A DNA stretch of 55,763 nucleotides, filler included, from Sphacelaria rigidula (taxonomy: Eukaryota), in NCBI GenBank assembly GCA_964200075.2. It is 5 parts of 5 records of this genome, joined end to end, with 100 filler letters (N's around TTAATTAATTAA, not from the genome) between each part and the next. Parts side by side here need not be neighbours in the genome. Positions count along the whole stretch, not along the records: positions 33,520 to 44,591 come from CAXNAA020005433.1; 4 more parts are not named here. One strand, written 5' to 3'. Below are positions 11,075 through 44,691 of the stretch, one piece after another. Position 1 is the first letter of the stretch. Every line of letters starts with the position of its first letter. The position numbers and the translations under genes were made by a program. The notes under the pieces are model-generated. The model had not been told where the DNA came from and ran no database searches. It was given only the letters and a program-made list of their open reading frames with translations.

Positions 11075-11174
11075 NNNNNNNNNNNNNNNNNNNNNNNNNN
11101 NNNNNNNNNNNNNNNNNNTTAATTAATTAANNNNNNNNNNNNNNNNNNNNNNNNNNNNNNNNNNNNNNNNNNNN
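11075..11174. other. Artificial 100-nt contig linker
   Basis: N44 + TTAATTAATTAA (stops in all six frames) + N44. Confidence 0.98.
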
Positions 11175-22247: not shown

Positions 22248-22347
22248 NNNNNNNNNNNNNNNNNNNNNNNNNNNNNNNNNNNNNNNNNNNNTTAATTAAT
22301 TAANNNNNNNNNNNNNNNNNNNNNNNNNNNNNNNNNNNNNNNNNNNN
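22248..22347. other. Artificial 100-nt contig linker
   Basis: Same N44-TTAATTAATTAA-N44 structure. Confidence 0.98.
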
Positions 22348-25385: not shown

Positions 25386-27846
25386 TGTTACAAACAGACG
25401 GTATAGTGGGGGTGTTCTCAGCATTAGGCATCGCCACTGACTTATAGGAAGACGATATGTCTCGTGGTCTCGAACAAGTATCCACTTGAGTCATTTCATG
25501 CGCATACAAATACGTGATGACTAATATATACCATGTTGTTTGTGCATTGAAGTTCATTTTTATACTATCATGACGACATATATCACATACTGACGTACCG
25601 AGTATGGTCCAGGGATCCGTACTGTATGGTCTCACCGTGTTCAGCAATCAACCAGCAAAAGCATAGCAAGAGGGAATGCGTCCAACGCAGTACAGTTCAC
25701 ATGGAACGGCAAGGACCTTGATCACAGCTCCAGAAGCGATTCAGCTTCTCTTTCGTGGTGGTGTGGTTTCGATAGCCTCATAAATAGATTCACGTAAGCT
25801 CTTAGCTCCTTCTTGTGCCCATAAAGAGAGTAAAACCAAGGGTCGTGCCGGGTAATGAAACCACGGCGCGAACGGAGGCGTGTCTGTAATCGTTACAACG
25901 GACACCACTCCCTCTCCTCTAGTTAGAATACCCGTAGGTCACATCAACTAGCCCTCCGAGCCCGTCACTCGAATAGCTGGGCTCATCCTCGTATTACCCC
26001 TCCCACCATTACGCTGCGATCCGTAACACCCCCCCTCAGGCCTAGGATCGAGAAACCCTGGGACTAAACGTGGTTCGACGATGGATCTCCGCGTCACCAT
26101 GTTCCCCTTCCCAGAGTAATCGGCGTTGCTTCGTATAGCCGTCCATCTTGGCAACCGTTCTGCCGGGTTAGACCACGTAGGGAATTCAAACGCCGTGCAG
26201 AAGGATCTCGAACAGTCTCAACAACTTCCGCTCTTGTAGACCTCTCTGCCGGGTTAGACCACGTAGGGAATTGAAATACCGTATAGAAACGATCCTATCC
26301 AATCCGGCGAAGTCCTTGATCTTGTTGACCTCTCTGCCGGGTTAGACCACGTGGAGAATTTACACACCGTGCAGAAACGATCTCACCCCGTCCGGAGAAG
26401 TTCTTGATCTTGTTGACCGCTCCGCCGGGTAAGACCACGTAGGGAATTTAAACACCGTAGAGAAACGACCCCATCCAGTCCGGAGAAGTCCTTGATCTTG
26501 TTGACCGCTCCGCCGGTTTAGACCACGAGGGGAATTTAAAAACCGTACAGGAACGATCTCAACCCGTCCGGAGATCCTGTTGACCTCTCTGGGCTGTCCG
26601 TAAATCGTTTACGGATCCTGGTACCTCGGGGAATCTGCCGCGCAATCGAGTCCCTTTCTGCTCGAGATGGTGTATCAGATGGACGTGGCTGCGGGTGATA
26701 TAATTCCCACAAGGCATGAAACATGTGGAACTGTAACCCAGTGAAACTGTCCAAAGCCTGTTCTCTGAAAGCCATGTGGCTCAGCTCCGTCGTGGAAAAC
26801 AATCGATGTTCCCACTCACGACGATCGTGGACCGAGCACTGCTTTCCTATCCGTTAGAGTATATAGTAAAGGTGTGGACATGATGTCCTCAGCCAATCCT
26901 AAATCTGCCCCCCCCAGCTAGCTAAAAGATCTCGCCTGGAAGTGATTGCTGCAGCTGTTCCGGACGCACATGAAATTTCCTCAAGTTGGCCGCGAACACG
27001 GTTCGCTCTTGTACTTCACGCAGCTGCATTTTGACCTCAAGATTAAGACCTGGTATCACCACCTGCTCCACCGTCCCGGCCCAGTCCACAAGTCGTGTGA
27101 AAATTTGGCCGGTACATCTAGGTTCAGAAGGGAGCTTTCAGACTCTGTGACTAGCATCATACCTTATACCTTAGCTACCTAGCGATTCTGCCGACTGACG
27201 AATCATTGCGGCATTTTTAGCTAATCTCACCTCTTCCCGACGCCGGTGGCGTTGGGTAAATAGCTCATGAACGTCCTTCAATTTTGTCACTGTTGCTCTA
27301 CCGTGTTTTTTCACGGTAGGGATTCTACTTCAGGCGACACAGAGCCTACCAGGGTGTGAGGCTCGCGCTCAAAAGCAGCATTAGTCGTGTTGGGTTATGC
27401 GGCAGTAACTGGTGGGAAGTAGTTTGATGAATCCATGCAACAGGATCCACATACTCGTCACACCATTTCAGCCACTGCTTACATAGCTCGGCTAAAACGC
27501 CATGCAACCACTTTCCGTATCTTTCCACCGCGCCCTGATCGCGAGGGTGATCTGCGGGACCATGGTCCAGTTTCACCTCCATCCACATGGCATACATGGT
27601 TCCCCACTTCCGAAGCGAACTTCCCCCCAACGTCACTTCAGAGAAAATAGGGCGTTTCGAGCGTCAAAAACAGTTTCAGCAGACCCTTGACTACGTGCTC
27701 AGTAACCTTGGCTGCTAGTGGAAGTGCAAAGAGAGCTTGGTCGCTCGATCCATAACAACCAACAAGTACCTATCACCAGAAGTAGAAATCTGCTTCATGT
27801 CCGATGTGTCCATCTACATCATCTCGCAGAACTGCAAGAAGTGGGC
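25386..27846 (-). mobile_element. Older degenerate Ty3/gypsy element: putative 3' LTR 25386-25897, PPT and integrase remnant (continues at 33235-33419)
   Basis: On the minus strand the LTR reads TGTAAC...TGTAACA and is preceded by the purine tract AGAGGAGAGGGAG. Integrase fragments SGDRYLLVVMDRAT and HPRDQGAVERYGKWLHGVLAELC are present. Confidence 0.7.
26152..26592. repeat. Tandem array of about 5 x 88-bp units
   Basis: The core (t/c)gccgg(g/t)t(t/a)agaccacg recurs at 26161, 26247, 26335, 26423 and 26511. Confidence 0.92.
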
Positions 27847-28115
27847 TGTAGACTTGTCTGGAATCAGAACAAGATCTAAGTGCTTGCTCCGAAGGCTTCC
27901 TCCCCAGCAGGGCTTCAGATACTTTAAGACAGAGCAGTTATACAAACAGTTGTCTTCATTAAACCGGAAGTACGCTTCAAGAGCTTTCCTCATGAACACG
28001 ATATGTACGCATATGAACACGATATGTTACGCATCCAATAGTCATCCTCCAACGAAATCAAGGATCCCCCGCATATCTACATGTGGCACGTATACTGTAG
28101 GTGGACTACTCTACA
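27847..28115 (-). repeat. 3' LTR of the chromodomain gypsy element
   Basis: Direct repeat of 32985-33230 carrying an extra ~21-bp internal duplication. Confidence 0.95.
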
Positions 28116-31100
28116 GCACCCTACAAAAATTCGCACTACCCGAAATAGAAAGTGAATTTGACAAACAGTAGACACCGACAGTACCCTACGATGTTAACCA
28201 CAGACAAGCATTCAATACCAGACCGCATCAGGTCAAATCACGATGCCCCCCCCAGTATCATCCTAAAACACCAGCACGAGCTACTCCAACATGCTAGGCA
28301 AACGATAACCAAGCGGTATACTCAACGAACACCAAATTGTATCGTAGAATCCATGAACTGCCAACAACCAATCACAGCTTGAAACAACCAATCGGAGCCT
28401 GATACCATACTTAGCCAGCCAACGCGTCCGTACCTGCTTTGTTAACCGCAACTTATGCAATTCAGAACGTACACACTGCGGGGCTCCTTCCAAAACAGTT
28501 TCCAGTGGCTTCCACGAGCTCTCGTCCTTGCCGAAACCTACCCATTCCACGTGTACAACGAACCCATCACCGTCTTGAGCCTCGGGCAAGTCAACGATCG
28601 CCTCCATTTCGAACTCCCCTTGAGCAAGCGCATACTGGAACATTTCCTTCAGATCCGCAGTGACCTCCAGCTCCGTATCCGCGTAGTACCATAGACGGGC
28701 GACAGGCGCGTCCTTAACCTCTCCGTTGACGATATTCTGAATCTCGTACACGTGCTGATGCTCCGCTGCCACGATTCTCCACGGTCCTGTCCACGTACTG
28801 ACGAGTTTCGGCAATGTGCCGGAACGCCTAACTCTCGCCGCCAACACATAATCACCAACCATAAAATTAGGCAACTGTTCCCTACTGGCAACACGTCGCT
28901 GTAACCCACGGGTCTTTTCCACGCGCTGCGCCACCTCCTTATGAAGCTCTTGTTGCGCCTCAACAACTGACGCCACCTTCTGCCGCAGCCTGTCTTCATC
29001 CAGCACATCATGTCGCCATTCGCCGCCGGTCGACGGGGCCAGTGTCGAAAACCTCGTGCGTGGCGCGCGTCCAAACATTACATGGTGGTGGGTACTGGCA
29101 TATCGCTCGCGGAATATCGTATTCAACGCCCACTGCACCGCAGGCACCAGCCCCACCCAGTCACGAACATCGCGCCGCTCCTCTTGAAGCATTGCGTTCA
29201 GAGTACGGACAACTCCTCGCATCATCTGTTCACACGTCCCGTTGGACCACGGCGAGTTGGCGACCGTGAACCTCCTGTCCAGTTTCAGCGCCTTTTCTAG
29301 CGCTTGCATCACACGGTTTTTAAAATGCGACGCGGTATTACTAAGCCAAACCTCCGGTGGGCCCAAAGTTTTGCACCACGTCAACAAATGCAGCACCGTC
29401 AAGGCAGCAGTGCAAGATTCCGGGGGTTCCAACTACACGAAATTGCATAGATCTCCCATCATCACTAAAATGTACGTGTATCCATCGCCTTCATCAAATC
29501 CTCTCTTGCCCAAGGGACCACTTTCATCAACGTGGAGATAATCAAAGTGCATCACCTCACCGGGCCGTGTACCTTGGCGGTCTTCCCTAGTGGTCGCGGG
29601 ACCATCTCCCCAGCTTTCGAATTCATGCAATGTAAGCATGTTTTCACGAAATCGATAACGTGAGCTTCCATCTAGTACCAACAGCAGTATTCCCGTCGTC
29701 GTTGCAATGTGGCCACAACCCCGCGATGGCCTGCCCCCTTCATCTGGGCACACACCATCAAACGTGTTTGCAATTCTTTTTGTTGAGGTGGGATCCACAA
29801 CACATGCTTATCTGCGACGTGCACGCGAAACAAGCCCTCATCGTCTTTCAAAACGCGCCCAATAGCGGCAGTAAACGAGGTAGCTCCATCAACAAAACTG
29901 CCCAAATGTAGATCCGATACATCTGGGAACATCTGCACCTCATACCCCTCCTTCGGATACGACACAGCGACAGCATGCGGCACCAAACCTTGAGCAGCAT
30001 GCCACGCCTGACCCCGCTGAAATATCCACGCTGAATCTTCGATTATGCGGTTGGACGCCACTCGCTTAGTGCGGCGGACGTTTCCCCGCAGATGTTCCTT
30101 CAACAGCTCACCCAGCGGCTCCACCGTTTCCGCCAAACGCGGTAGAGATGTTTGTAGCCAATTGACAGCCTGCACAAACTGCGTCAGCTCCCCGCCGTAC
30201 GTGGGCGACGCATGTTGGCTAATCCGGTCAGTCGGTCGCGATCATGAGCAACCTGTCCACCTGAAACCCTTCCCACACCACGTGATCTGCGTATCATAAA
30301 ACATGCACTTATGCGCAGCAGCAAACAGACCAACGTCCTCCAATCGGCCCAAAATTGCATCCAGCGTGCGCAGCAAGTCATCCTCATTTTTCCCCGACCA
30401 CAAAATACCATCAACACATACCTTGCAGTCGAGTCCAGTCAACAATACCATCATTATCGTCTGTTGAAAATATCCGGTAGCGTTGAGCACGCCTTGCGGC
30501 ATCCTCGTGGAGGTGAAAAGTCCGTCGGGAGTCGCAGTGGTGAACATTTCCTGGGCTTCAGCCGCTAGCGGTATCTACCAGTACCCCTGTAGCATGTCAA
30601 GCTTCCCAAGACACGATGCACCCAACAAATCGGCCATTTCTCTCCCATGATTTGGCCTTGCACTGGGAACCTTTTCGAGCTGCCGGTTGACTGCTCTGTA
30701 ATCACTCACCAGGCGATAGCTGCCCTTCTTGGGCGCAGCCATAGCTGCGCTTGCTCACACCGCCTGGATATTGCGGAATACCAACCCCAGCACCACCAGC
30801 GTAGCCATATGCACCCTGCCAACCAGCTCTTCTTCACTGGACAGTATGTTTCGGGCTCGCCTTAACTGCTCTAGCTCCCGGTTTGAAGCGTACCTGCAAA
30901 GGCTCCAGGCGAGCAGGCGAGTCACCTCGCAAGGCTCGTCGAAATGCATTGATCCAGCGGTCGACAATGTCGCGGAGCTTGCTTACCCCGTTCTCCGACA
31001 TGCCATTATCCGCCGCAGCTTGCACCGCGTCCTCAAGCGCCACTTTGCGCTCAACAAGTTCTTGCACTGGTGGCATAAACATATCCGGCCCCCGTGACAC

Positions 31101-32984
31101 CAATCGCTCGACAGATAAATCCACCGGTTCCTCGTGAGCGGTCGTTTCCTGGAGCTCCTCCACCGCGAGACTCACACGCCTGCACTCGCGGAACTCAGGC
31201 GTCTCGATACCCCGCAAAGAAGGGTGTTCTGCTTGCGCGCATGCGCCCAGATCATTGTAGATATTGATGCCGATTTCGCTAGTGTTTTCCTCCCGACAGT
31301 ACCCACATCATCAGCGCCGGGCATAATCGCATACCAGCAGGGCTCAAGCACCACCGGCCCCCAGCTCGTGTGGAGTGCCGTACGAACCAGACACGTTTTG
31401 GAGTGCAAGGTTTTTACGTTACCGTCAGCCAGCCTTACCGGGTGTCCACGTGCCATTGATGTGACAATTGATACTCCAGAAAACGCGTTTTCCAACTGGG
31501 TCGCCACCTGTTCAGATATAATGGTTACTCCAGCTCCAGAGTCCAACACAGCCTTGACTGGACAGACTGTCTGTACGGCGGAACCTGGGGAAGACAGATC
31601 AGCTCGGCAGCATTGCTGTCTATTTTTCACGTCCAAACCCTCGACCTCCAGCTCTGCCACCTCGGAAGCAGTGTGTAAGCCCCACCACGCCGGCACTGCC
31701 GCCGATGTCCATTGCTGAACTGCTTTTATCGACGGCGAAGGCTGTACTGTAGAAGCCGGAACAGTCGGCACGGGCTGCAACGTACTATCAGCACCGTTGG
31801 TGCCCCCTTTACGACCATCCCCTGGAAAAACAGCCCGGGTAGGGGTAGGACCCTGGCTCCCGCCCCGCGGAGCTTGCGCCCTTTGTTGTTGTTGTTGCTG
31901 CGGCTTTACGTGTCCGCGATCCCCACCTCCGGTAGCTTCAGGCTTGTGTTTCTTCTCACAGTCTTTCCTAAAATGACCCTTGTCCCTACACTCGAAACAT
32001 CCTGCGTAGTCAGGGCCGGGTCTGCGAGATTTTCTGTTTTTCGATCCGCCATCACCGGATACAACAGTCGCGGCTGCGGCGCTAGCTGCCGTCAACTGCT
32101 TTTTCTGTCCTTGCGAACCCACCTCCTTGTTCTGTGGAGTGGATCTGCGCTGCTTATCAACCTCCTCGACAGTTCGCCACAGTTCCGCCACCTCACGAGC
32201 GACATCGTATGCGAGTTTCGGTTGTTCTTTCCACCCCCCCGCCATTTGCAGTTTGTTTCGGACTTTATCTTTGAATTCCGGAGGGGTCAGGCCAGCAATC
32301 ATGGCTCTAGTGATGATGTGTGCCGGGTCTGGTTTATAAGTACGGTCCATTTCGCGGAAAACATGCTCTGTACCCTCATGTTCCTTAAACATTTCTTGCA
32401 AGGCACTCCATTGTCCTTCCACTCGACGTATAGCAGTTGAATCGGGTCGTGCAGCAAATGCACTTTTCACACTGGCTGCGGCCTCAGTTGGATCTATTTC
32501 CATTCCTACCAAGCAATTTGCATGCCGTGCGATCCCTTCCCTAATCCGGGCGTTAGAAAGCTCAGTGCCATCAAAACTAGTGTCCAACAAACAATCTTGT
32601 ACATACCGAGGCACTAGCTCCTCCATGATCAACAGTGCGCTCTTTACAGTTCGAGTCTTGTTTCGTCGCAGAACGGCTTGTTCTTACTCCTGGTATTTCT
32701 GCAGAAACCGTCGCGATGCTTGCTCACTGAACAAGCGCCCATACTCAGGTGCCTTGAGCGATCCCCCCCGCAATCAAATCCGTTACATTGAACTTCACCT
32801 CTTCGTCGTCCCCCTCTTTGTCAGAATTAGACTCCTTGCTCACTTTCGTTCACGCCATCTTTCAAACGCTTCCTGCACTCCGTGCTCCGTCGCACTACCC
32901 CCGTGTTATAACGAGCGTCCTCGCTTTTTTTTAGGGTTCAGCGACGCCGCTCAGAAACCACAAGTTTCTTGAGTGAACGTTTAC

Positions 32985-33230
32985 TGTAGACTTGTCTGGA
33001 ATCAGAACAAGATCTAAGTGCTTGCTCCAAAGGCTTCCTCCCCAGCAGGGCTTCAGAGACCTCAAGACAGAGCAGTTATACAAACAGTTGTCTTCATTAA
33101 ACCGGAAGTAAGCTTCATGGGAGTTCGTCACGAACACGATATGTTACGCATCCAATAGTCATCCTCCAACAAAATCAAGGATCCCCCGCATATCTACATG
33201 TTGCATATACTGAAGGTGGACTACTCTACA
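32985..33230 (-). repeat. 5' LTR of the chromodomain gypsy element
   Basis: Direct repeat of 27847-28115, upstream of gag. Confidence 0.95.
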
Positions 33231-33419
33231 GGGCGGGTCGCATCGTTATCGTGTGACTATTAGTAACAGCCTGGACTTGTTCTTAAGGTTGAAGATTTAG
33301 TTGCGGTTCAACGGATCATCGGAATCTTATTTACTTTGTTCAAAAGACTCGGGATTCGCAAGCGGTTTCGACCATGTGCCCCTAACCCAGAAGTTTCTGC
33401 ACGGCAGCGAAAGCATGAT

Positions 33420-33519
33420 NNNNNNNNNNNNNNNNNNNNNNNNNNNNNNNNNNNNNNNNNNNNTTAATTAATTAANNNNNNNNNNNNNNNNNNNNNNNNN
33501 NNNNNNNNNNNNNNNNNNN
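33420..33519. other. Artificial 100-nt contig linker
   Basis: Same linker structure. Confidence 0.98.
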
Positions 33520-33669
33520 CGCAACTTTTGCGCCATTCCACGTGTCTGGGCTGCGTGTACTTGGGTTGCAACGCTGGAAACAAAGACTAGGGATTGATTC
33601 GTACGATTCGAATCAATAACACTGAATCCAAGTAATTTCTAGACGAATCATTCATTTGTCCGGCCCTTG

Positions 33670-34963: not shown

Positions 34964-37900
34964 CTGGAGATCATGGAGCGAGATTCCTCGGGGTTGAAGG
35001 GCGCCAAGAACCCCAAAGATCCCAGACCGAACGCTAAGGTCGGTGGAATAGGTGCGGAATCGTCGAAGTATTGCGCTGCCTTCAGCACCGTACCTAGTTC
35101 AGCAAGCGGCCGTGAAGCAAGATTGACGATACGGCAAATGCGATGCGTGCGTGCCATTCGAAAGCCAAATATCACTCTCAACTGAGCTATGCCTACGATA
35201 GTTCATTTCGAATCGTTCAAGTTTTGCACCACCTTCACCAGACTGCCTGGCTGTCAGCCGGAACACACGTGCTACAGTGTGAGTGCTCAAGTGAAGATAC
35301 CGTCGTCCTTCTCGTTGAACTGCCAGTCAATTGTTGCATCCTTATACGCCACGCTACACCTGATTTCTGCAAAATTCAAGGTAGCAATGGCGTCTCCCGT
35401 GTATTCTCCCCTGACCAAGTTCGACATCTAAGCGCACCTACCGACGATTTCTAGTAAATTTCAGTGTGCCCACCGCTACTGCGATCACCATCCCGAGAAG
35501 GCTACCAGTATCTTGCCCAACAGGAAAATAATTGCAACCGACAATTCGCGCAACATGACGGATGGGTCGCTTGGATACGAGGACACAAAAATATCCCGAC
35601 AAATCAAATGCTACGGCCTCGAGTTGACCGTGGACGATGGAGTCGTATCAAAAAAAACTCCAGGGACAACTCTCGACAAGTCTCAGACAAGGCCCCACAG
35701 AGGAGGGCGCCTGGAAGGCAAGGCCGTTGGAGCAGGTTGCGACTCAGCTACTCGAGGAGCACACAAGGCAAAAAATCGTAACGACTGAACCTGAACAAAG
35801 GAGACGCCAACACCAACTCATTAAACCGGAGAAGATCAAAGTTGACAGAAAACAAAGGAGGTCTGAACCTGGAAGCCAGAGGCAGAAGCAACAACAACCG
35901 ACAGGGCAGCACAGTTGTAGCAGTCCCGCCCCCCTCGCCTCCGACGATCCCCAATGAGGGACAAGGTGCTTCAAGCCATCGTCGGTCTTTAGCCGTAATG
36001 GAGGGAAAGTGCAAACAAGTGTGTTGGTGTCACACGTTTCGAGCAAACCCCGGTGCACGGTAGCCGTATGACCACAAGCGTGGGAACCTCAAGCAGGTAA
36101 CTCAAAAGGGAACAGCTGGCCTCGAGTGGTGCCCAACAATGTTACATTTCAGCGTCATCCAGCCAAACTCCCTCGTTTTCGAGCTTTGAGCTTCGATATC
36201 TCGCCAACCGCGACCAATGTCGAAATTTTAGACAGACGAAAAATTGCGCCATTTTTTAGAATTCCCGTTTGAACGTGGTTCCAAAACTTGTTTTATACGT
36301 GGCTATTTTTTAACATGTACGCATTGTAATTCACTCGTCCTTGCCACACCACGAACTCGGGGACGGAAAGCGGGCTCCTGTCTGGGAGTTCAACTTACCG
36401 CCGGTTCAAAGACAAACATTACTTGATTCGTGTGTATTTGTGTGTATCTCCAGACACAATGAGAGAGTAATCGTTGGTGTTCTTCGATTGCGGTGCCATC
36501 AAAGACGGAACAACGAAAATCACCAAGGTACGAGAACGAAGAAATAAACGCGAACGTGAAACGCACACACACGCACGAACTAGCGACACCTGGAGAATGA
36601 CATTTGCTTACTGCAGTACAGGCGGGACGTAACGGCAACATCGATACACATCCGACAACGTCAACATCACACCGATTGCATTCGTGCCTTGAAAATCCCT
36701 CACCGTCTCCTCCCAGACAGATAACGAAGTCTGTTTCGCTCGCCAAATTTTGCGGGTTAAATCTCGGGACATCCGGCATGAACACCGGGTTGCCCTCCTC
36801 ATCGACCACATCGTCCTCAGAGGGGTCCACCATGATCGTCAAGCCTTCCTGACTTTGCAGCCAGTTCACCAGTTCCTCTGCCGCCCAAGAAAAAATAGCA
36901 CGAACAACAAGTTCTGACTTGAAACGACAGAAACTCATCAAGTTTCTCTATCGGAAAAATCACGAGCGCTGTCTTCGCAAGATATGTCAACACAGCTAGG
37001 TCTTTCTGGCCTTGAAGGGACTGACTTCCCCAGATCACCACATCACCAGTCGCTCCGTTGCTGGGGGGGGGGGGATAAGAAAACATGGCGATTGAGCAAT
37101 CACGTTCGGCGAAAGGCTGCTCTTCTTATAAACAAACACTCCGCACCGCGTCGAGATTGGATTGCAGTACCATGCCGGCCAAGCTCTCCTGACTTCGTAC
37201 CACCAGTTTGGCTTGGGAAACCAACGGAGTACTGAACTGAATTCCACATGCATCTTGCCGGCGTGTTCCGATGGTGTAAATTAAAATGGTCCGATTGCCG
37301 TCATTAGGGTGGAAAGAACGAGGGTTCGATTCTCCATGTGTTGGGTTTTGTCGTGGTGAATATCTGATTTCCACGGTGGAAAGCTTGAGAACGTGAGTAA
37401 ATAACGTAGTCGACTGAAGTTGTTAGACGTGAGTTGACGCGGTGCGGGAGTGGTGATAGTCATGACCCGATCCACGAGACCAAAATGCAAGGCGTGTACC
37501 GGGAAGAGATAGGTTAATTCCTTGAGACCATGGACTGGTCCCGAGGAAGAGGAGGGGTTCAAAGTGCGACAAGGAAACACACACATACACACATATATAC
37601 ACACCACACATAATTCGGTCGTTGGGACAACTACAAAGTTCCGTCATCAGATGACCAGCGGCCACGATAATATTCTCGGCCATGTCATTCAAAGCCACCA
37701 GTTGCGCCAACGAAGCCGTGACCAAGACGAACACAAAGCTAGAAAAACAAGCGAGAACGCAGCATGCCATTCCCGTCAAAAAATACAAAAAAAAAAAACG
37801 AAATCATGGGATACGAGTGGACACCTCCAAGACCGAGAAAGTGTTCGAAACAGCCGGATGCTTGACCCCATAACCAAGGCAAAGCCACACCCGGGAAGCA

Positions 37901-40765
37901 GCAGAAAGAGCTCAAAACCTGAAACGCATCCAATGCGTTACCTGGTATCTTTGATAACATTTCGCCACCACAACAGCACACCGGAAACGTCCAAAACGCC
38001 GCTCACTATCCAACACGACGTCAACCTCTGTGGCATACGCACAAATACCAAGCACGAAATCCCATGGCCACACTCTCGTCAAACATTCACCTGTTTTAGC
38101 GGCCACCTCAGCATCCTTCCACTTTTTGATAACGGCCACCCGTCGCGGGGGACCATCCCAGAACAGACGGGCACTCCTGCCTGACCTGATTGATCAGACC
38201 AGCATGTTCGCATTGCCCGACACGTTTCACTGGTTCACGTTTGATCGGTCTCTGATTGCTCCGCGCTGTCAGCCGGTCAGCGCCCGGCTCGGCCATCGCA
38301 ATTCATTCATGAGATGCCTTTGTCAGGCAGCAAGCACTCTGTATATCTCTTCAATTCCAACGTGAGTAATTTCAGCACGATGGACGCAGTGCAAGCCGGT
38401 TTTGAGCGTTTTGTTTATTGGTAAACACGACAGTAGCAAAGCTTTCAACAGGTTGTAACATCTCTGCGTCCGACATGAACGTAAAAAGTGGTGGGATGAT
38501 CTAGTTGTTGGTGGTGGTGTTGCCGTTGTTATTGTTTTTGTTGTTGGTGGTTGTTGGTGGTGAGTTTGACATGTGTATTTAGGATCATTTTCTGGAATGT
38601 GGTACAGAAGTGACTGCATCTGTTTTCATTAACCTGACAATGTTGGTCCCTGTGCTGAGCCCTATGAGACTGTTCGCTTTCTTGTCTGTCAACACCCTGG
38701 CCATGCCAGCAAACCCCATGACGTACTCCTTGAAGTCGATCGTGCCGCTGTACAGAGAGAGAAAAAAGATGGTGGTAGAGCAACGATATGGGGTAGGCCT
38801 GGGGTTAAGGTGAAGGTTTCGAGTTTGGGTTCTGGATTAGACCAAAGCTATAACAGGTGCACTGCTTAATAACGATCATACGTATCAAGTTTTTTTTTTC
38901 CCTTGACGGAAGGAGGGAACCTGACCCAACTCTTACCCCGCGAGCGGGTTCATGTACCGATTACCCGGAGGCTTGGTCACACTGCCTCGTGACAGTCATG
39001 GGGGCTAGGCGCCTCGGGAGTTCGCATGCTTTGCTTGTGAGACGTTGTGACACTGAGCCATTAGACACTTGGGTCATCATACATTGTATCATTACACACT
39101 CAACTAAAGCCATAAAGTACAGATATGGCACTAGGCCATTGGACACGAAGTCATTGGGCATTGAAGTCATCAGACACTCGTCAACAGACGAGAAGTAAGG
39201 CTATGATTCACGAAGTCACTACAAACCAGGTAATCAGACACCATGACACACGCCGACCGTTCATATTCGCGCAATCCAGTAGCGTTTCTGAATGTCCCAC
39301 CACAGCTAAACGCAAAACAAACTTCATGACCAAATGTTGAATAACACGAGCGAGCAAATAACTACAGGCACGAACACAGAACATTGACTGAGAACTCATG
39401 CATAGTGCGCCGACATATTTCCCCCCACCTGTGGTTCCTGTCGAATGCCTGGAAGTACCTCTGCACCCACTCCTCCTTCATGATGCCGAAGTTGCGACGG
39501 ACGGTCCGGCGGAATTCGGTGGCCGTCAAATACTCCTTTTCTCCTGTAAGTTCGTGATGATCCAACAAAATAAGTACTTAGCGCGAAGTATTCCCGAAAT
39601 AAGTGAACCCTGATGAAGGTGCATACAAGCGGTGAAGCCATTAAAAAAAACGACCGAGCATACACATGAGAAGGATTTGCGTTCGTTGTAACACGAAAAT
39701 GAAAATATCCCAACCCCGACCCCAGCCCCAACCTCAAGCCTGAGAGTGAAGAAGAATAGCCACCGGACTCACAACTAGCCCCAATCACGAGAAAACCTCG
39801 ACAGGTCTCTTCCGGGGCCTCAGGAAAGGAGGTCGTGCAACGAGCATCATCATAGAGGTGGGTTACCACTCAGACAGCTCTGGGGAGACCAACATCACCA
39901 GGCGGGATGTCTCAGCCACTAATGCTGCAGGAAGACGAGCTATATAGTAGCACGGTGAAGGTGTAAAAATCACGCCCACGGCAGACAGCGAGCCAGAGAC
40001 CTCCACCGCGAGCCATCAAAAAATGACTGGCGAGATAGAACCAACTCTGTGTACCCGTACGATGTAGTGCACTGTCGCGCAGCGCGACGGGATGACAAAA
40101 ATTCTAGAGTAGCCGACACAACAACCGCCGGACAGGTCACCCGCCAGTTTCCTAAATAATTGATACGATACATAATCTGTGTATGCTAATGCAGTGAAAT
40201 GCGGCGATACGAGAGAGTCACAAGAGCAACATTGAACACCAACAGCCAAACGCAACAAAGGGAGTATCCCGTGACAGCGACGCGAACGAACAAGAGCCAA
40301 CTGTCGCCCTACGCGAGGTCTCACCAGCCAATTGCCGAAAGGTCTGAAACAGATCAGCCAGCTCCGCCGGCTCGAAGTTCGTCCGCAGACACAAGTTAGA
40401 CACCGTGTTCTTCCAGTCACTCGGGAGGTCGTATCGCTGCACTTCTTGGCTCTTGCCAAACGCCCCATATCCTATATTTTTAGCCATCCCCTTCCCTACC
40501 ATCACCGCCCTATCCCTAGCTCCTTTGACCCCGATCCCTCCGTCCATACTATTTACAGACCCCCCGACCCTCGCCCTCATCCCTTGCAGCCCAGGCCGCC
40601 CTGTTTCGCCCTTTGGCGAGGAACCTAATGTCGGGGTTCGTGCGGATTCGGCGGGATCTTGAGTCGTTGTTGGTGGTGTTGGTGGTGTTGCTGATTTTTG
40701 TCCTGGTTGTGGCGGAGTCTTTGATGTCCCAGGCTGTTCCTCCTTTTTGCCCTTGTGATCGTACC
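34964..40765 (-). CDS. EF-hand-containing NAD(+) kinase, multi-exon, partial (start uncertain, C-terminal exons missing)
   Basis: Phase-compatible GT-AG exons: ~40765-40325 (TNFEPAELADLFQTF); 39543-39429 (YFQAFDRNH); 38747-38634 (SGTIDFKEY); 38185-38091 (WDGPPRRVAVIKKW); 36877-36704 (DFVICLGGD); 35093-34964 (GTVL...GLGSLGFL). GGDGT and GxLGFL are NAD kinase signatures. Confidence 0.88.
37425..37505. repeat. Short dispersed repeat (SINE-like), second copy at ~42927-43005
   Basis: gagttgacgcggtgcgggagtggtgatagtcatgacccgatcc...tgcaaggcgtgta matches gagttgactcggtgcgggagtgcagatagttatgacccaatcc...tgcaaggcgtgta. Confidence 0.7.
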
Positions 40766-42501
40766 CTGGAGGGTGATAGCTTCGCCTAATTTGATTCGTC
40801 ATGCATGTCCACGAACAAGGTATGTATACCCACGTACAAGGGTACAGGCAGGGAAGAAGGTGTTTGTATGGCATGCTACACTAAATCAGTCAAGAGACCC
40901 TCGCCAGTGGAAAAAAAAAAGAGAGAGAGAAAAGAGGACAACAACAAAATCATTCGAGACCGGTTGCGATCAACTTTGAAGCCGAACATATCTACTAGAC
41001 AGTCCAGCTGGAAAGCCTTGACCTCGAAGCCTCTTCTCGGAACAATTATTTTTACTCGCAGTTGTCGGGCGAGTTCCCAGATGCATCGATCGAATTGGTC
41101 CGTCGAGAAGCAGGATAACCAAATGGTCGATGTAAACAAGAAATCATTTTGTCATTTCCGCTACACGTCAACACCTCGCCTTCCTAGGGACGAGCCCAAA
41201 GTATTACAATAATTTGAATGGAGTGATCCATCTCTCCTCCCGGTACGAGCCTTCCATTCTGATATCACGGAATGGATTATGACTCCCGCAGCGCGTCGGA
41301 TGCCGTTAAAGTTTGTTTGATACTGGCGTCTTCACGCTCTCAACGAACGAAAATCAGACACTTCTCGTGAACAAGTCGCATCAAGCGGGATTCATCCCTC
41401 CATCCTCCACCGTGACATATTTCACTTGCTCCCGACACCGACCGACCACCGGGGTGAGGCGGCATCATATTCCTCGAAAAAATAACTGAAATAGCGTGAA
41501 ACATGTCTCCAAGTTAGGGCGCAATTCCATTTTATTGGAGCACACACAAGAGAGGGGCTGTTATTGCGCGGTTGTGCCCCCTGCCTCCTTACCTCATGGC
41601 TTGTCGAGACAAGACCTAACACGGTGAGACATTGACTACTCAAGACAGTGATCGTAAGCAGACAAAGAAGAAGCGTGGACTATGGAGAGGAGAGCGACGG
41701 AATAGTCACCACTCTGTTGTATGAAGCCGTTGGAGTGAAGGCAAGGGAAATTTGGGTGCGCTGTACAGCACAGTACAGCGCGGTTGGAACGGCATAGCGC
41801 GTAGCACAACATCAAACCATGCTCGACCCTTGCCAGCCCCTTCTGGAAAAATACGATGACTCAATACTGTCCAAACAAGACGAGGATGAGTTTTGGATAT
41901 CGCAGCAGCAGCGGCAGCCTACGCGCACCACCATAATGCTAGTAGAAGTGAATGAGCCCTGACCCTGATAGAATGGTCAACAGCGGAATTGTACGTTTAG
42001 CCTGGCTCAAAATTGTTCAAGGGTTCTTGTACTCTCAACTCCATGACATGATGCCCAAACACCATAAAGCCGACATGTTTTTGTTTTCATTCTACTCTAT
42101 ATTTCTCCTCCGAGCACGTTTTTCGGTTAATTATCCAGGGTACGTTCATGTTGACACCCAGGCCGAATGCTTAGTGGTTCAGATTATGTTGAAAAATCAA
42201 TCAAATCAATCAATTGATCTATATTTATGGTAAGGCTCAGGCTTACGGTTAACCCCTCCCGATAATACCAGCTGCTTGCGCCGCATTCCCCAGGCGAGCT
42301 CACAGCGCAACAAAAAGGCCAGCTGCGGCTGTTGAGGACCGCCGCCGCGCACTCGAGGGCAGAAAGGACGGTGTGATCTGACATCATCTATTTTAGAAGT
42401 CAGGCCTAGCATATTTGCGCACTACACGTGCAACAAATGGGCATGCATACTCTATTCACTGCCTTTCAGCCAGTGTTTCAGTTTTGCTTTTTCACGGATA
42501 C

Positions 42502-42580: not shown

Positions 42581-43420
42581 CCCCTGGGGAATCCGTCCAT
42601 GTGCGACAACCGAACAAGCAGAAATAATAACCAACGAAATCAATCCACCAGCGCATCAACTGAAAGGATGCATAACAACATCGAGCGATTGATGCTTGAT
42701 AACATCGAGCGTCATGTCACTTTTCTCGTCTTCTGCCACACTTTTATATCCCTCACCGTCCTCCAGACGAGCCCGTGGTCTACTAGTCTCAAGAGATCAA
42801 GCCAGAGGGTGGAGAGAACGTGGGCTCGCATCCCGATGCATTACGATTGTTCCTGAGAGAATTTGACCTCCACCGTCGAAACCGTGAGTACGTGAGTAAG
42901 CCAAAAAGAGTTTACTTCGTTTTTTCGACGAGAGTTGACTCGGTGCGGGAGTGCAGATAGTTATGACCCAATCCGAGAAACCACAATGCAAGGCGTGTAT
43001 CTGAGAGATCACCGAGTCGTTCCGACGAAAAACAAATGTCGTCGCTGACAATAGCCCTAAGCAGCGAAGCTATGGCGTGAGACGTGCCATTGTAAGTGAG
43101 AGGGAGTCTTGATTTTGTATGAGCCGTTTTTTAATCACGCGATACGGCACCAAGTACCGTGCCGTACCGTATGGAGAGTGTTGTTGCATGGCAGGATGGG
43201 GCGGGCATGGCGGGTCACTGATGACTCAGCATGTCCGGAAGATGTTGGAGAAAAAACGCTCTTCTTCGTTCTTTACAGTCTTTTTTTCCATTCGTGGTGG
43301 AGAGCCTGGATGAAAAAATAAAACTCACTGCAGTGGAGCTTACGTATTTATCGAAAAAGTGGGTGGTTTCTTGGTGCGAAAGTGGACACCGATACTCGAA
43401 TCTTCAAAGGGGCTGACAGT

Positions 43421-44535
43421 CTCACGAAAACCCGAGAACGTTCCGTCAACATGTTCACGACCAAGGGCTTGTCTTAGGCCCTGTGATAGCACGTGGGTTT
43501 TCGATCGAAAAAGTGCGGTGGGAAACAAAAATCCTAATCTGATAGGTCGTAATTTCAACCATCGTCGTTTATTTTGAAGATGGTTGAAATCATGACCCAT
43601 CAGATCAGGATTCTTGTTTTCCACCGCACTTTTTCGATCGCAAACTGATGTGCTAAGACATGCACTTCGCAAATTATTTTTCGATCGAAAATGTGCGGTG
43701 GGAAAGGAGAACTCCGATCTGATTGGTCGTGATTTCAACTATCGTAGTTTATTTTGAAGATGGCTAAAATCACGACCTATCACATCGGAGCTTCCCTTTT
43801 CCACCGCACATTTTCGCCTTTAGGCCGTGTCTTTTCAAATTGTTTTGGTGTCGAAAACGTGCGGTTGAATCGAATTCGCTGGTTTCTGATTCTGGCACAC
43901 TATTTATTTTCTCAGATGGTTGAGAGCATGAATGCCGTGGACGTATCAGGTACGACAAAATTCAATTCCACCGTACGTTTTCGAGTCGAAAACAATCTGA
44001 TAAGACACGGCCTTAGCGGTACAAATGTTGACCGAACGTTCTCGGGAATTTGCGAGTTTGAGCTAACACTAACGGTCGTGATTTCAAATATCGTAGTTTA
44101 TTGTTCAAGATGATTAAAATTATGACCTATAAGATCGGAAGTTCTGTGTTCCACCGCACTTTTTCGATCGGAAAATGATATACCAAGGCCGCGTCTTATC
44201 AAATTGTTTTCGACTCGAAAACGTACGGTGGAATCGAATTTGCTCTTACCTGATGCGTCCACGGCATGTTCTCAACCATCTGAGAAAATAAAGAGCGCGG
44301 GCGAATCAGAAACGCGGGAATTCGATTCGACCGCACGTTTTCGACACCCAGATAATTTGATAATACACGGCCTAAGGCCCTGTCTTCGCACATTAATTTT
44401 CGATCGAAATTGTGCGGTGGAAAACAAAAATCCTGATCTGATAAGTCGTAATTTCAACCATCGTTGAAATATGTGAAGATGGTTGAAATCACGACCTATC
44501 AGATCGGGATTTTCGTTTTCCACCGCACGTTTTCC
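43421..44535. mobile_element. Composite TIR element built from tandem hairpin modules (43421-44056) plus a partial inverted second copy
   Basis: Outer inverted repeats ctcacgaaaacccgagaacgttccgtcaacat and atgttgaccgaacgttctcgggaatttgcgag enclose ~140-160-bp palindromic modules. Related modules recur at 44074-44535. Confidence 0.75.
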
Positions 44536-44591
44536 TAGGGCCGAAGCTTTCAGGAGCAGGGCGGCGCGTGTACTGCGCCAAGTTGATAGGG

Positions 44592-44691
44592 NNNNNNNNN
44601 NNNNNNNNNNNNNNNNNNNNNNNNNNNNNNNNNNNTTAATTAATTAANNNNNNNNNNNNNNNNNNNNNNNNNNNNNNNNNNNNNNNNNNNN
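44592..44691. other. Artificial 100-nt contig linker
   Basis: Same linker structure. Confidence 0.98.

Follow-up and report, generated by a model that had tools for sequence, protein, structure and literature searches.

In the reviews that were searched, the Ca2+ inputs to NAD kinases all act in trans, via calmodulin or a calmodulin kinase, and the calmodulin-dependent NAD kinases of animals described by Love et al. in 2015 reportedly couple Ca2+ to NADP synthesis with the sensor in trans as well. We analyzed a window of 55,763 nucleotides (nt) from Sphacelaria rigidula (GCA_964200075.2) and found in it a gene in which an EF-hand module is joined directly to an NAD kinase (NADK). An earlier note on this DNA had taken the architecture to be uncharacterised, and we came to the same view: no EF-hand-fused NADK appeared among the listed titles and abstract openings of the literature searched, the scope of which excluded subscription journals and with them the older Euglena NADK biochemistry. 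The mentions of EF-hands in the accessible parts of PMC5890153, PMC6593290, PMC4072752, PMC11233901 and 10.1101/521658 concern calmodulin and NADPH oxidases, and the fusion is visible in databases only as automatic annotation (D7FLZ1). The gene represents a classical NADK with a built-in conserved EF-hand module, which is common to ochrophytes and euglenids and is probably mitochondrial. Such an enzyme would give kelps and Euglena a direct route from Ca2+ to NADP(H), one that probably operates in their mitochondria.

The gene sits on segment 33520–44591, which is one contig (CAXNAA020005433.1) of the 244-Mb, 27,214-contig assembly. It consists of six minus-strand exons with 5 GT-AG introns (781, 681, 448, 1213 and 1610 nt in transcript order) and an open frame of 362 codons without a stop. 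In transcript order, its parts are:

40325..40785, minus strand, exon A (not the first of the gene): a YHPPGY motif, a low-complexity spacer, then two helices of the EF module (lead helix and first helix)
39429..39543, minus strand, exon B: AGEKEYLT, the disabled EF1 loop, followed by the second helix, the EF2 entering helix and the first 5 residues of the canonical loop
38634..38747, minus strand, exon C: SGTIDFKE, which completes the canonical loop, then the exiting helix and a linker that is conserved
38186..38633, minus strand, EF/kinase intron of 448 nt, partly retained in RNA-like runs
38091..38185, minus strand, exon D: SARLFW..PPRRVAVIKK, with which the N-terminal domain of the NAD kinase opens, corresponding to human NADK from about residue 91
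36704..36877, minus strand, exon E: kinase N-terminal domain through the GGD of GGDGT, based on an RNA contig spanning exons D, E and F
34964..35093, minus strand, exon F: the GT of GGDGT, then GSLGFL; the transcript runs on into exons outside the contig

Four of the 8 available sequencing runs were aligned to the segment, namely X1 and X2 (one study), X8 (a second study) and X5. No run is recorded as RNA; X1, X2 and X8 were read as RNA because GT-AG introns are skipped in them, whereas X5 is DNA-like, with even coverage across the segment. All five junctions were found in all three RNA-like runs, from both studies, and none in X5. Exons A and B are joined at 39542/40324 (depth 186/216/129 in X1/X2/X8) and exons B and C at 38747/39429 (183/174/83, short side 26 letters). 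The EF-to-kinase junction 38634/38185, which defines exon D together with the alignment of an orthologue with human NADK, had a depth similar to that of the neighbouring junctions (149/153/68), carried in each run by one short contig whose short side is 24 letters long. The earlier note had six exons spliced in continuous frame and proposed an RNA check across 38634–38185; both the frame and the splice were borne out, with the EF and kinase parts in one transcript. The EF-hand/NAD kinase fusion is thus real and forms one spliced gene. One boundary had to be moved: the first listed exon had been started at 40765, but the RNA aligns up to 40786, with an AG acceptor before it, which puts the exon start at 40785. 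Exon A is further defined by RNA contigs covering 40324–40786 with a loose upstream end and by a tblastn match to P0018. Taken alone, exon B gave a weak EF-hand_6 match (E 0.18) and exon F a match to Pfam PF01513 (E 0.0011); the RNA extends from exon F as a loose end of at least 255 letters. An acceptor at 38180 was tried for exon D and rejected, as it is out of frame with donor 38634 and the RNA supports 38185.

The 448-nt intron was retained at depth 20/17/12 against 149/153/68 spliced (X1/X2/X8), and read-through would lead to a stop 245 codons after the start of exon A and to an EF-only product. The 681-nt intron (38748–39428), the retention of which would disrupt the Ca2+ loop, was retained at 11/12/5. 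Retention of the two introns around exon C thus amounts to about 6–18% of spliced depth in all three RNA-like runs; these molecules may be unspliced pre-mRNA, and the intron-retaining contigs probably break the assembly graph between the EF and kinase parts. At position 40663, a contig of X1 and X8 that follows the CAA-rich stretch of exon A diverges into unrelated sequence; it probably comes from a different transcript containing a repeat of this kind.

The contig is limited to the middle part of the gene, with RNA continuing both before 40785 and after 34964. Read by hand, the upstream continuation gives ...VLVSNV into RRSYHPPGY (compare FRHNYHPPGY in Ectocarpus) and the downstream one RVLNAYRKPIS (RVLEAYRRPIS in the orthologue). 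Pattern searches of the assembly for the upstream exon and the C-terminal kinase exons gave 0 matches, from which absence does not follow in so fragmentary an assembly, and a full-length orthologue searched against it matched only the six known exons. Searches of the S. rigidula assembly with Pfam PF01513 and PF20143 were empty, since the gene matches exon by exon.

The EF module has the order lead helix, disabled EF1 and canonical EF2. The helix TNFEPAELADLFQTF is encoded at 40382–40338 and the 12-residue EF2 loop DRNHSGTIDFKE at 39442–38726 (both on the minus strand), the latter interrupted by the 681-nt intron; the calcineurin-B/neuronal calcium sensor (NCS)-like helix, degenerate EF-hand and intron-split canonical loop named in the earlier note were all located on this strand. 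An EF-loop has ligands at positions 1, 3, 5 and 12, Gly at 6 and a hydrophobic residue at 8, with helices on both sides. The EF2 loop satisfies this consensus, and in the model of an orthologue it is flanked by helices 77–87 and 97–112. Across the 111,522 codons that the window yields in six frames, a strict EF-loop pattern had no match; in the spliced model it had one. In the Ectocarpus orthologue P0009, Pfam detects EF-hand_1 (PF00036) at 25.9 bits (cut-off 25.4), and the module is folded as five helices in the predicted structure. At the six loop positions, 14 of the 19 aligned members are canonical, Asp1 being present in 19/19 and Glu12 in 17/19, and the ligands persist across ochrophytes, euglenids and a further lineage at about 40% overall identity. 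These residues suggest that Ca2+ would be bound at the single canonical loop.

Hippocalcin-like 1 matches the module continuously (query 14–98 to 16–100, E 3.7e-7) and recoverin likewise covers both hands, but by summed matches other EF proteins (S100P, centrin, troponin C) score like NCS proteins. We describe the module as resembling an NCS N-lobe, a label which is a best fit and not proof of descent. Members of the NCS family have four EF-hands and an N-terminal myristoylation site, whereas the module has two hands only and is internal to a larger protein. Its identity to five brown-algal orthologues is 85–87%, that of exon C to orthologues 88–90%, and that of the kinase part on the contig 73–78%. 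The EF/kinase linker is almost invariant in ochrophytes; its residues 114–119 are of low confidence in the P0009 model and probably flexible.

The kinase part is encoded on the minus strand by PPRRVAVIKK (38151–38122), GGDGT (36713–35089, interrupted by the 1610-nt intron with an RNA-supported junction) and GSLGFL (35022–35005), so that the NAD kinase domain read in the earlier note is in place and matches PF01513. The motifs that define classical NAD kinases were taken from the accessible parts of PMC5890153 and PMC11233901; the GGDG motif is present, with GGDGT invariant in 19/19 members. The C-terminal kinase exons were not found in the assembly; in orthologues they carry NE and DGLIxAxPSGSTAY. 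In P0009, Pfam gave NAD_kinase (PF01513) at 46.9 bits and NAD_kinase_C (PF20143) at 93 bits (cut-off 23.7), with DAGK_cat matches only at E 0.001–0.02, below cut-off. By sequence, human NADK is the nearest match of the kinase (E 7e-65), followed by yeast Pos5 (5.5e-46). The predicted structure of P0009 (mean predicted local distance difference test 83.7, predicted TM-score 0.75, hairpin at 128–137) has the two-domain NADK fold; its best fold match, with a TM-score of 0.88 on the target, is human NADK (E 1.2e-32). The Pfam and structure searches returned classical NADK domains only, and no P-loop zeta-toxin kinase domain of the NADKc type. The protein is a predicted NAD(H) kinase of the classical PF01513/PF20143 family with intact motifs.

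The closest named relatives, found with exon F, are brown-algal proteins: this search gave 13 proteins among 20 candidates, three of them annotated with EF-hand and NAD kinase domains. A cluster look-up added Ectocarpus siliculosus CBJ29816.1/D7FLZ1, other Ectocarpus spp., Scytosiphon promiscuus, Nemacystus decipiens and a partial Phaeothamnion protein. An unfiltered search with the Ectocarpus protein over 1.84 billion representatives returned 14,156 matches; among the best 150 examined, only P0026 (Chrysoparadoxa), P0015, P0029 (a cluster with Euglena mutabilis), P0030 and P0031 (both JGI records) contain the whole EF module, and P0014 holds only its end. In a profile search, 8000 candidates were scored and 3526 matched; the best 120 added Tribonema minus, E. 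gracilis EG_transcript_5140, E. longa, Rhabdomonas costata, a second E. mutabilis paralogue and two Logan records. The full-length proteins of Ectocarpus spp., Scytosiphon, Nemacystus, Tribonema, Chrysoparadoxa, E. gracilis, E. mutabilis, E. longa, Rhabdomonas and two further eukaryotes share one layout, which thus extends beyond the stramenopiles into euglenids and is conserved in two eukaryotic supergroups. Among the matches listed, no named diatom, oomycete, plant, fungal or animal protein has the module; many of these rows are nameless, and absence is not implied. In a metagenome scan, the module was present in 1 of 80 loci retained from 343 relatives, identical to P0031/P0177. A homologue search with exon E gave a self-like match only, and a search of the ESM Atlas no usable match. 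In euglenids there are two EF-NADK paralogues (P0174/P0181 and P0182/P0183/P0184); the loop is canonical (DRNGNGQINFEE) in one of them and degenerate (DRSGSRIITFED) in the other. One relative of another layout, P0028 of Didymoeca costata (832 residues), carries a tandem pair of NAD kinase domains.

In a kinase-only tree of 150 rows, from which ten near-duplicate or partial rows and low-coverage rows (e.g. P0015) had been excluded, all 10 EF rows fell inside a 33-row group with a support of 97 in the Shimodaira–Hasegawa-like approximate likelihood ratio test (SH-aLRT). A second, quick tree of 69 chosen rows kept the split at 97 and had three EF groups: ochrophytes, euglenids and a further pair. 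An approximately unbiased (AU) test did not reject a single EF clade (p 0.544), the tested group including P0186, which lacks the N-terminus, and the partial P0014. One origin of the EF module is thus possible. The same 33-row group also includes EF-less NADKs, e.g. those of the green algae Tetraselmis and Volvox. The gene does not depend on photosynthesis, being present in the non-photosynthetic Rhabdomonas.

The N-termini of the orthologues are presequence-like, suggesting that the protein is probably aimed at mitochondria. When the first 30 residues were scored, a net charge of at least +4 was found in 11 of 14 orthologues, compared with 15 of 96 background NADKs, which are mostly animal; the YHPPGY motif of exon A is common to the brown-algal orthologues and is placed right behind the presumed presequence. 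E. gracilis EG_transcript_5140 and 13614 are both in the verified mitoproteome (Supplementary File 1); for each of them, 3 unique peptides and a ratio of chloroplast to mitochondrion of 0 are given, and 5140 has a TargetP score of 0.948 (accessible part of PMC7403612). Rhabdomonas RCo025298, named NAD+ kinase, is predicted to be mitochondrial (TargetP 0.91; PMC8219788, seen in part). Several points weigh against mitochondrial import of the kinase: the first exon of the S. rigidula gene itself was not found, so that its presequence is deduced from orthologues; 3 of the 14 starts are chosen internal Mets and some rows are near-copies; and a cleavage-site pattern occurs in 6/14, none of them brown algal. 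In the same part of PMC7403612, label-free quantification is non-zero in 1/9 samples for each Euglena paralogue, t-tests are not significant, and the strongest raw intensity of 13614 is in sample 13, outside samples 31–33, which were taken as mitochondrial. An internal Met at 40547 could begin a presequence-free form.

We propose, with about an even chance of being right, a mitochondrial NAD(H) kinase that is tuned directly by Ca2+ through an EF module standing at the position of the autoinhibitory tail of human NADK. The nuclear-encoded protein would comprise a presequence, a flexible spacer, an NCS/recoverin-like N-lobe, a short linker and the kinase. Ca2+ would occupy the single canonical loop and shift the module. 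The module may then act on the beta-hairpin and hinge with which the kinase begins, the site onto which the N-tail folds in human NADK. Ca2+ would most likely lift inhibition and so raise organellar NADP(H) synthesis without a need for calmodulin, but the effect might also have the opposite sign; Ca2+ binding, Ca2+ control, this sign and the module–kinase contact are all what we infer. The human N-tail is inhibitory, its short strands packing on the N-terminal domain near the hinge, and its deletion raises activity (accessible part of PMC11759006); the algal module stops just ahead of the matching stretch, P0009 130–139 aligning with human QDPASQRLTW. A complex prediction of the EF module against the kinase dimer, made without alignments, scored 0.00 and carries no weight either way. 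Against Ca2+ tuning stand the presence of only one loop fit to bind Ca2+, the EF-less NADKs within the subfamily, deviation of the loop at one position in 3/19 members and its degeneration in 2/19 rows, which are one euglenid paralogue that retains the module; moreover, the conservation gap between EF and kinase parts is partly owed to a variable acidic loop in the latter. The canonical and degenerate Euglena paralogues form a natural control pair. More tentatively, the gene may belong to an ancient subfamily of eukaryotic NAD(H) kinases that reside in mitochondria and are switched directly by organellar Ca2+ through a half-NCS module. This subfamily would have a single origin and would have been retained by brown and yellow-green algae as well as by euglenids and further protists, with the module lost in green algae; it may underlie the Ca2+-linked NAD kinase proposed as a gear of the Euglena clock (Goto et al. 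1985, as cited in the accessible part of PMC6593290).

The same single loop, and the fold kept by the euglenid paralogue despite its degenerate loop, would also suit a module that is structural, always filled with Mg2+ or Ca2+ or aiding folding or oligomerisation, with no switch of activity. The EF1 region and packing residues are conserved to the same degree as the loop ligands, and the subfamily has EF-less relatives, but most NADKs fold and function without such a module and the ligands are kept in those 14 members despite low overall identity; we consider a structural role unlikely. In NCS proteins, Ca2+ exposes a hydrophobic surface, and the likeness to an NCS-type N-lobe together with the probably flexible linker could mean that Ca2+ steers docking to a partner enzyme or membrane and not catalysis. 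This is rather doubtful, since the module is only half of an NCS protein and stands behind a presequence and spacer, which leaves the mature module no N-terminal glycine for a myristoyl switch, and the nearly invariant ochrophyte linker suggests a fixed contact. A cytosolic, Ca2+-gated NADK supplying NADPH for the elicitor-induced oxidative burst, the setting to which the earlier note pointed, has lost ground and is improbable. For plants, it is published that Ca2+ and calmodulin govern the supply of NADP for the burst (10.1101/521658, seen in part), the Met at 40547 leaves room for a presequence-free form, and several database entries begin near the EF module, although these may be truncated models. 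On the other side are the basic orthologue N-termini, the Euglena mitoproteome listing, an upstream exon that the RNA reveals to be spliced in frame, and the membership of the plant burst enzyme NADKc in another family (same source). That the EF and kinase exons belong to separate transcripts, the fusion being a modelling artefact, is scarcely credible. No contig among those listed joins both parts in one piece, the joining contigs are short-sided, the intron between them is partly retained, and some database models begin inside the EF module or contain the kinase alone (P0014, P0019); yet the junction is at full depth in 3/3 RNA-like runs and absent from DNA, and several EF-plus-kinase open reading frames are contiguous on intron-free contigs of 1.4–2.5 kb from other organisms.

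In the rest of the window, the separate contigs, each of about 11 kb, are joined by N44-TTAATTAATTAA-N44 linkers at 11075–11174, 22248–22347, 33420–33519 and 44592–44691, so that features across linkers are not genomic neighbours. A decayed Ty3/Gypsy-like long terminal repeat retrotransposon was read by eye at about 27850–33250 (minus strand), with a zinc knuckle CFECRDKGHFRKDC near 32010, a protease-like LDSGAG near 31545 and then reverse transcriptase/integrase-like coding, bounded by two similar repeats of about 280 nt near 33230–32970 and 28115–27845. Several units of about 120 nt lie head-to-tail at about 26160–26600, and DNA depth indicates high-copy repeats at 42770–44591, near 33520–33630 and near 37300–37560.

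Among known entries, the Sphacelaria gene has a direct orthologue in Ectocarpus siliculosus D7FLZ1, which has an EF module 87% identical, begins without the presequence in the database, is labelled merely 'conserved unknown protein' or 'EF-hand domain-containing protein', and is the subject of no study in the literature searched. The NCS proteins (recoverin, hippocalcin, neurocalcin, KChIP) match the EF module continuously over the N-lobe but differ in that the algal module has only two hands and its EF1 lacks the CPxG sequence. In type I diacylglycerol (DAG) kinases, a recoverin-homology region and EF-hands stand ahead of the kinase. DAG kinases and NADKs belong to a common GGDG superfamily (accessible part of PMC11233901), but the former act on lipid substrates, whereas the algal catalytic domain is an NAD kinase. 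Plasmodium PfPIP5K/NCS likewise has an NCS-like EF module ahead of a small-molecule kinase, in that case a lipid kinase (PMC10543664, seen in part). Arabidopsis NADKc also couples Ca2+ to NADP synthesis and is mitochondria-associated (outer membrane), but uses calmodulin as a sensor in trans and has a zeta-toxin P-loop domain instead of PF01513 (accessible part of 10.1101/521658). Human cytosolic NADK (PDB 8KGC, 9CR3, 3PFN) and yeast mitochondrial Pos5 (3AFO) are of the same catalytic family, with the GGDG, NE and Gly-rich motifs, and neither has an EF-hand. The regulatory region of human NADK is likewise immediately upstream of the kinase (PMC11759006, in part), but this tail is disordered and controlled by phosphorylation, receiving Ca2+ via CaMKII (PMC11233901, in part), whereas in the algal protein the corresponding position is taken by the EF module.

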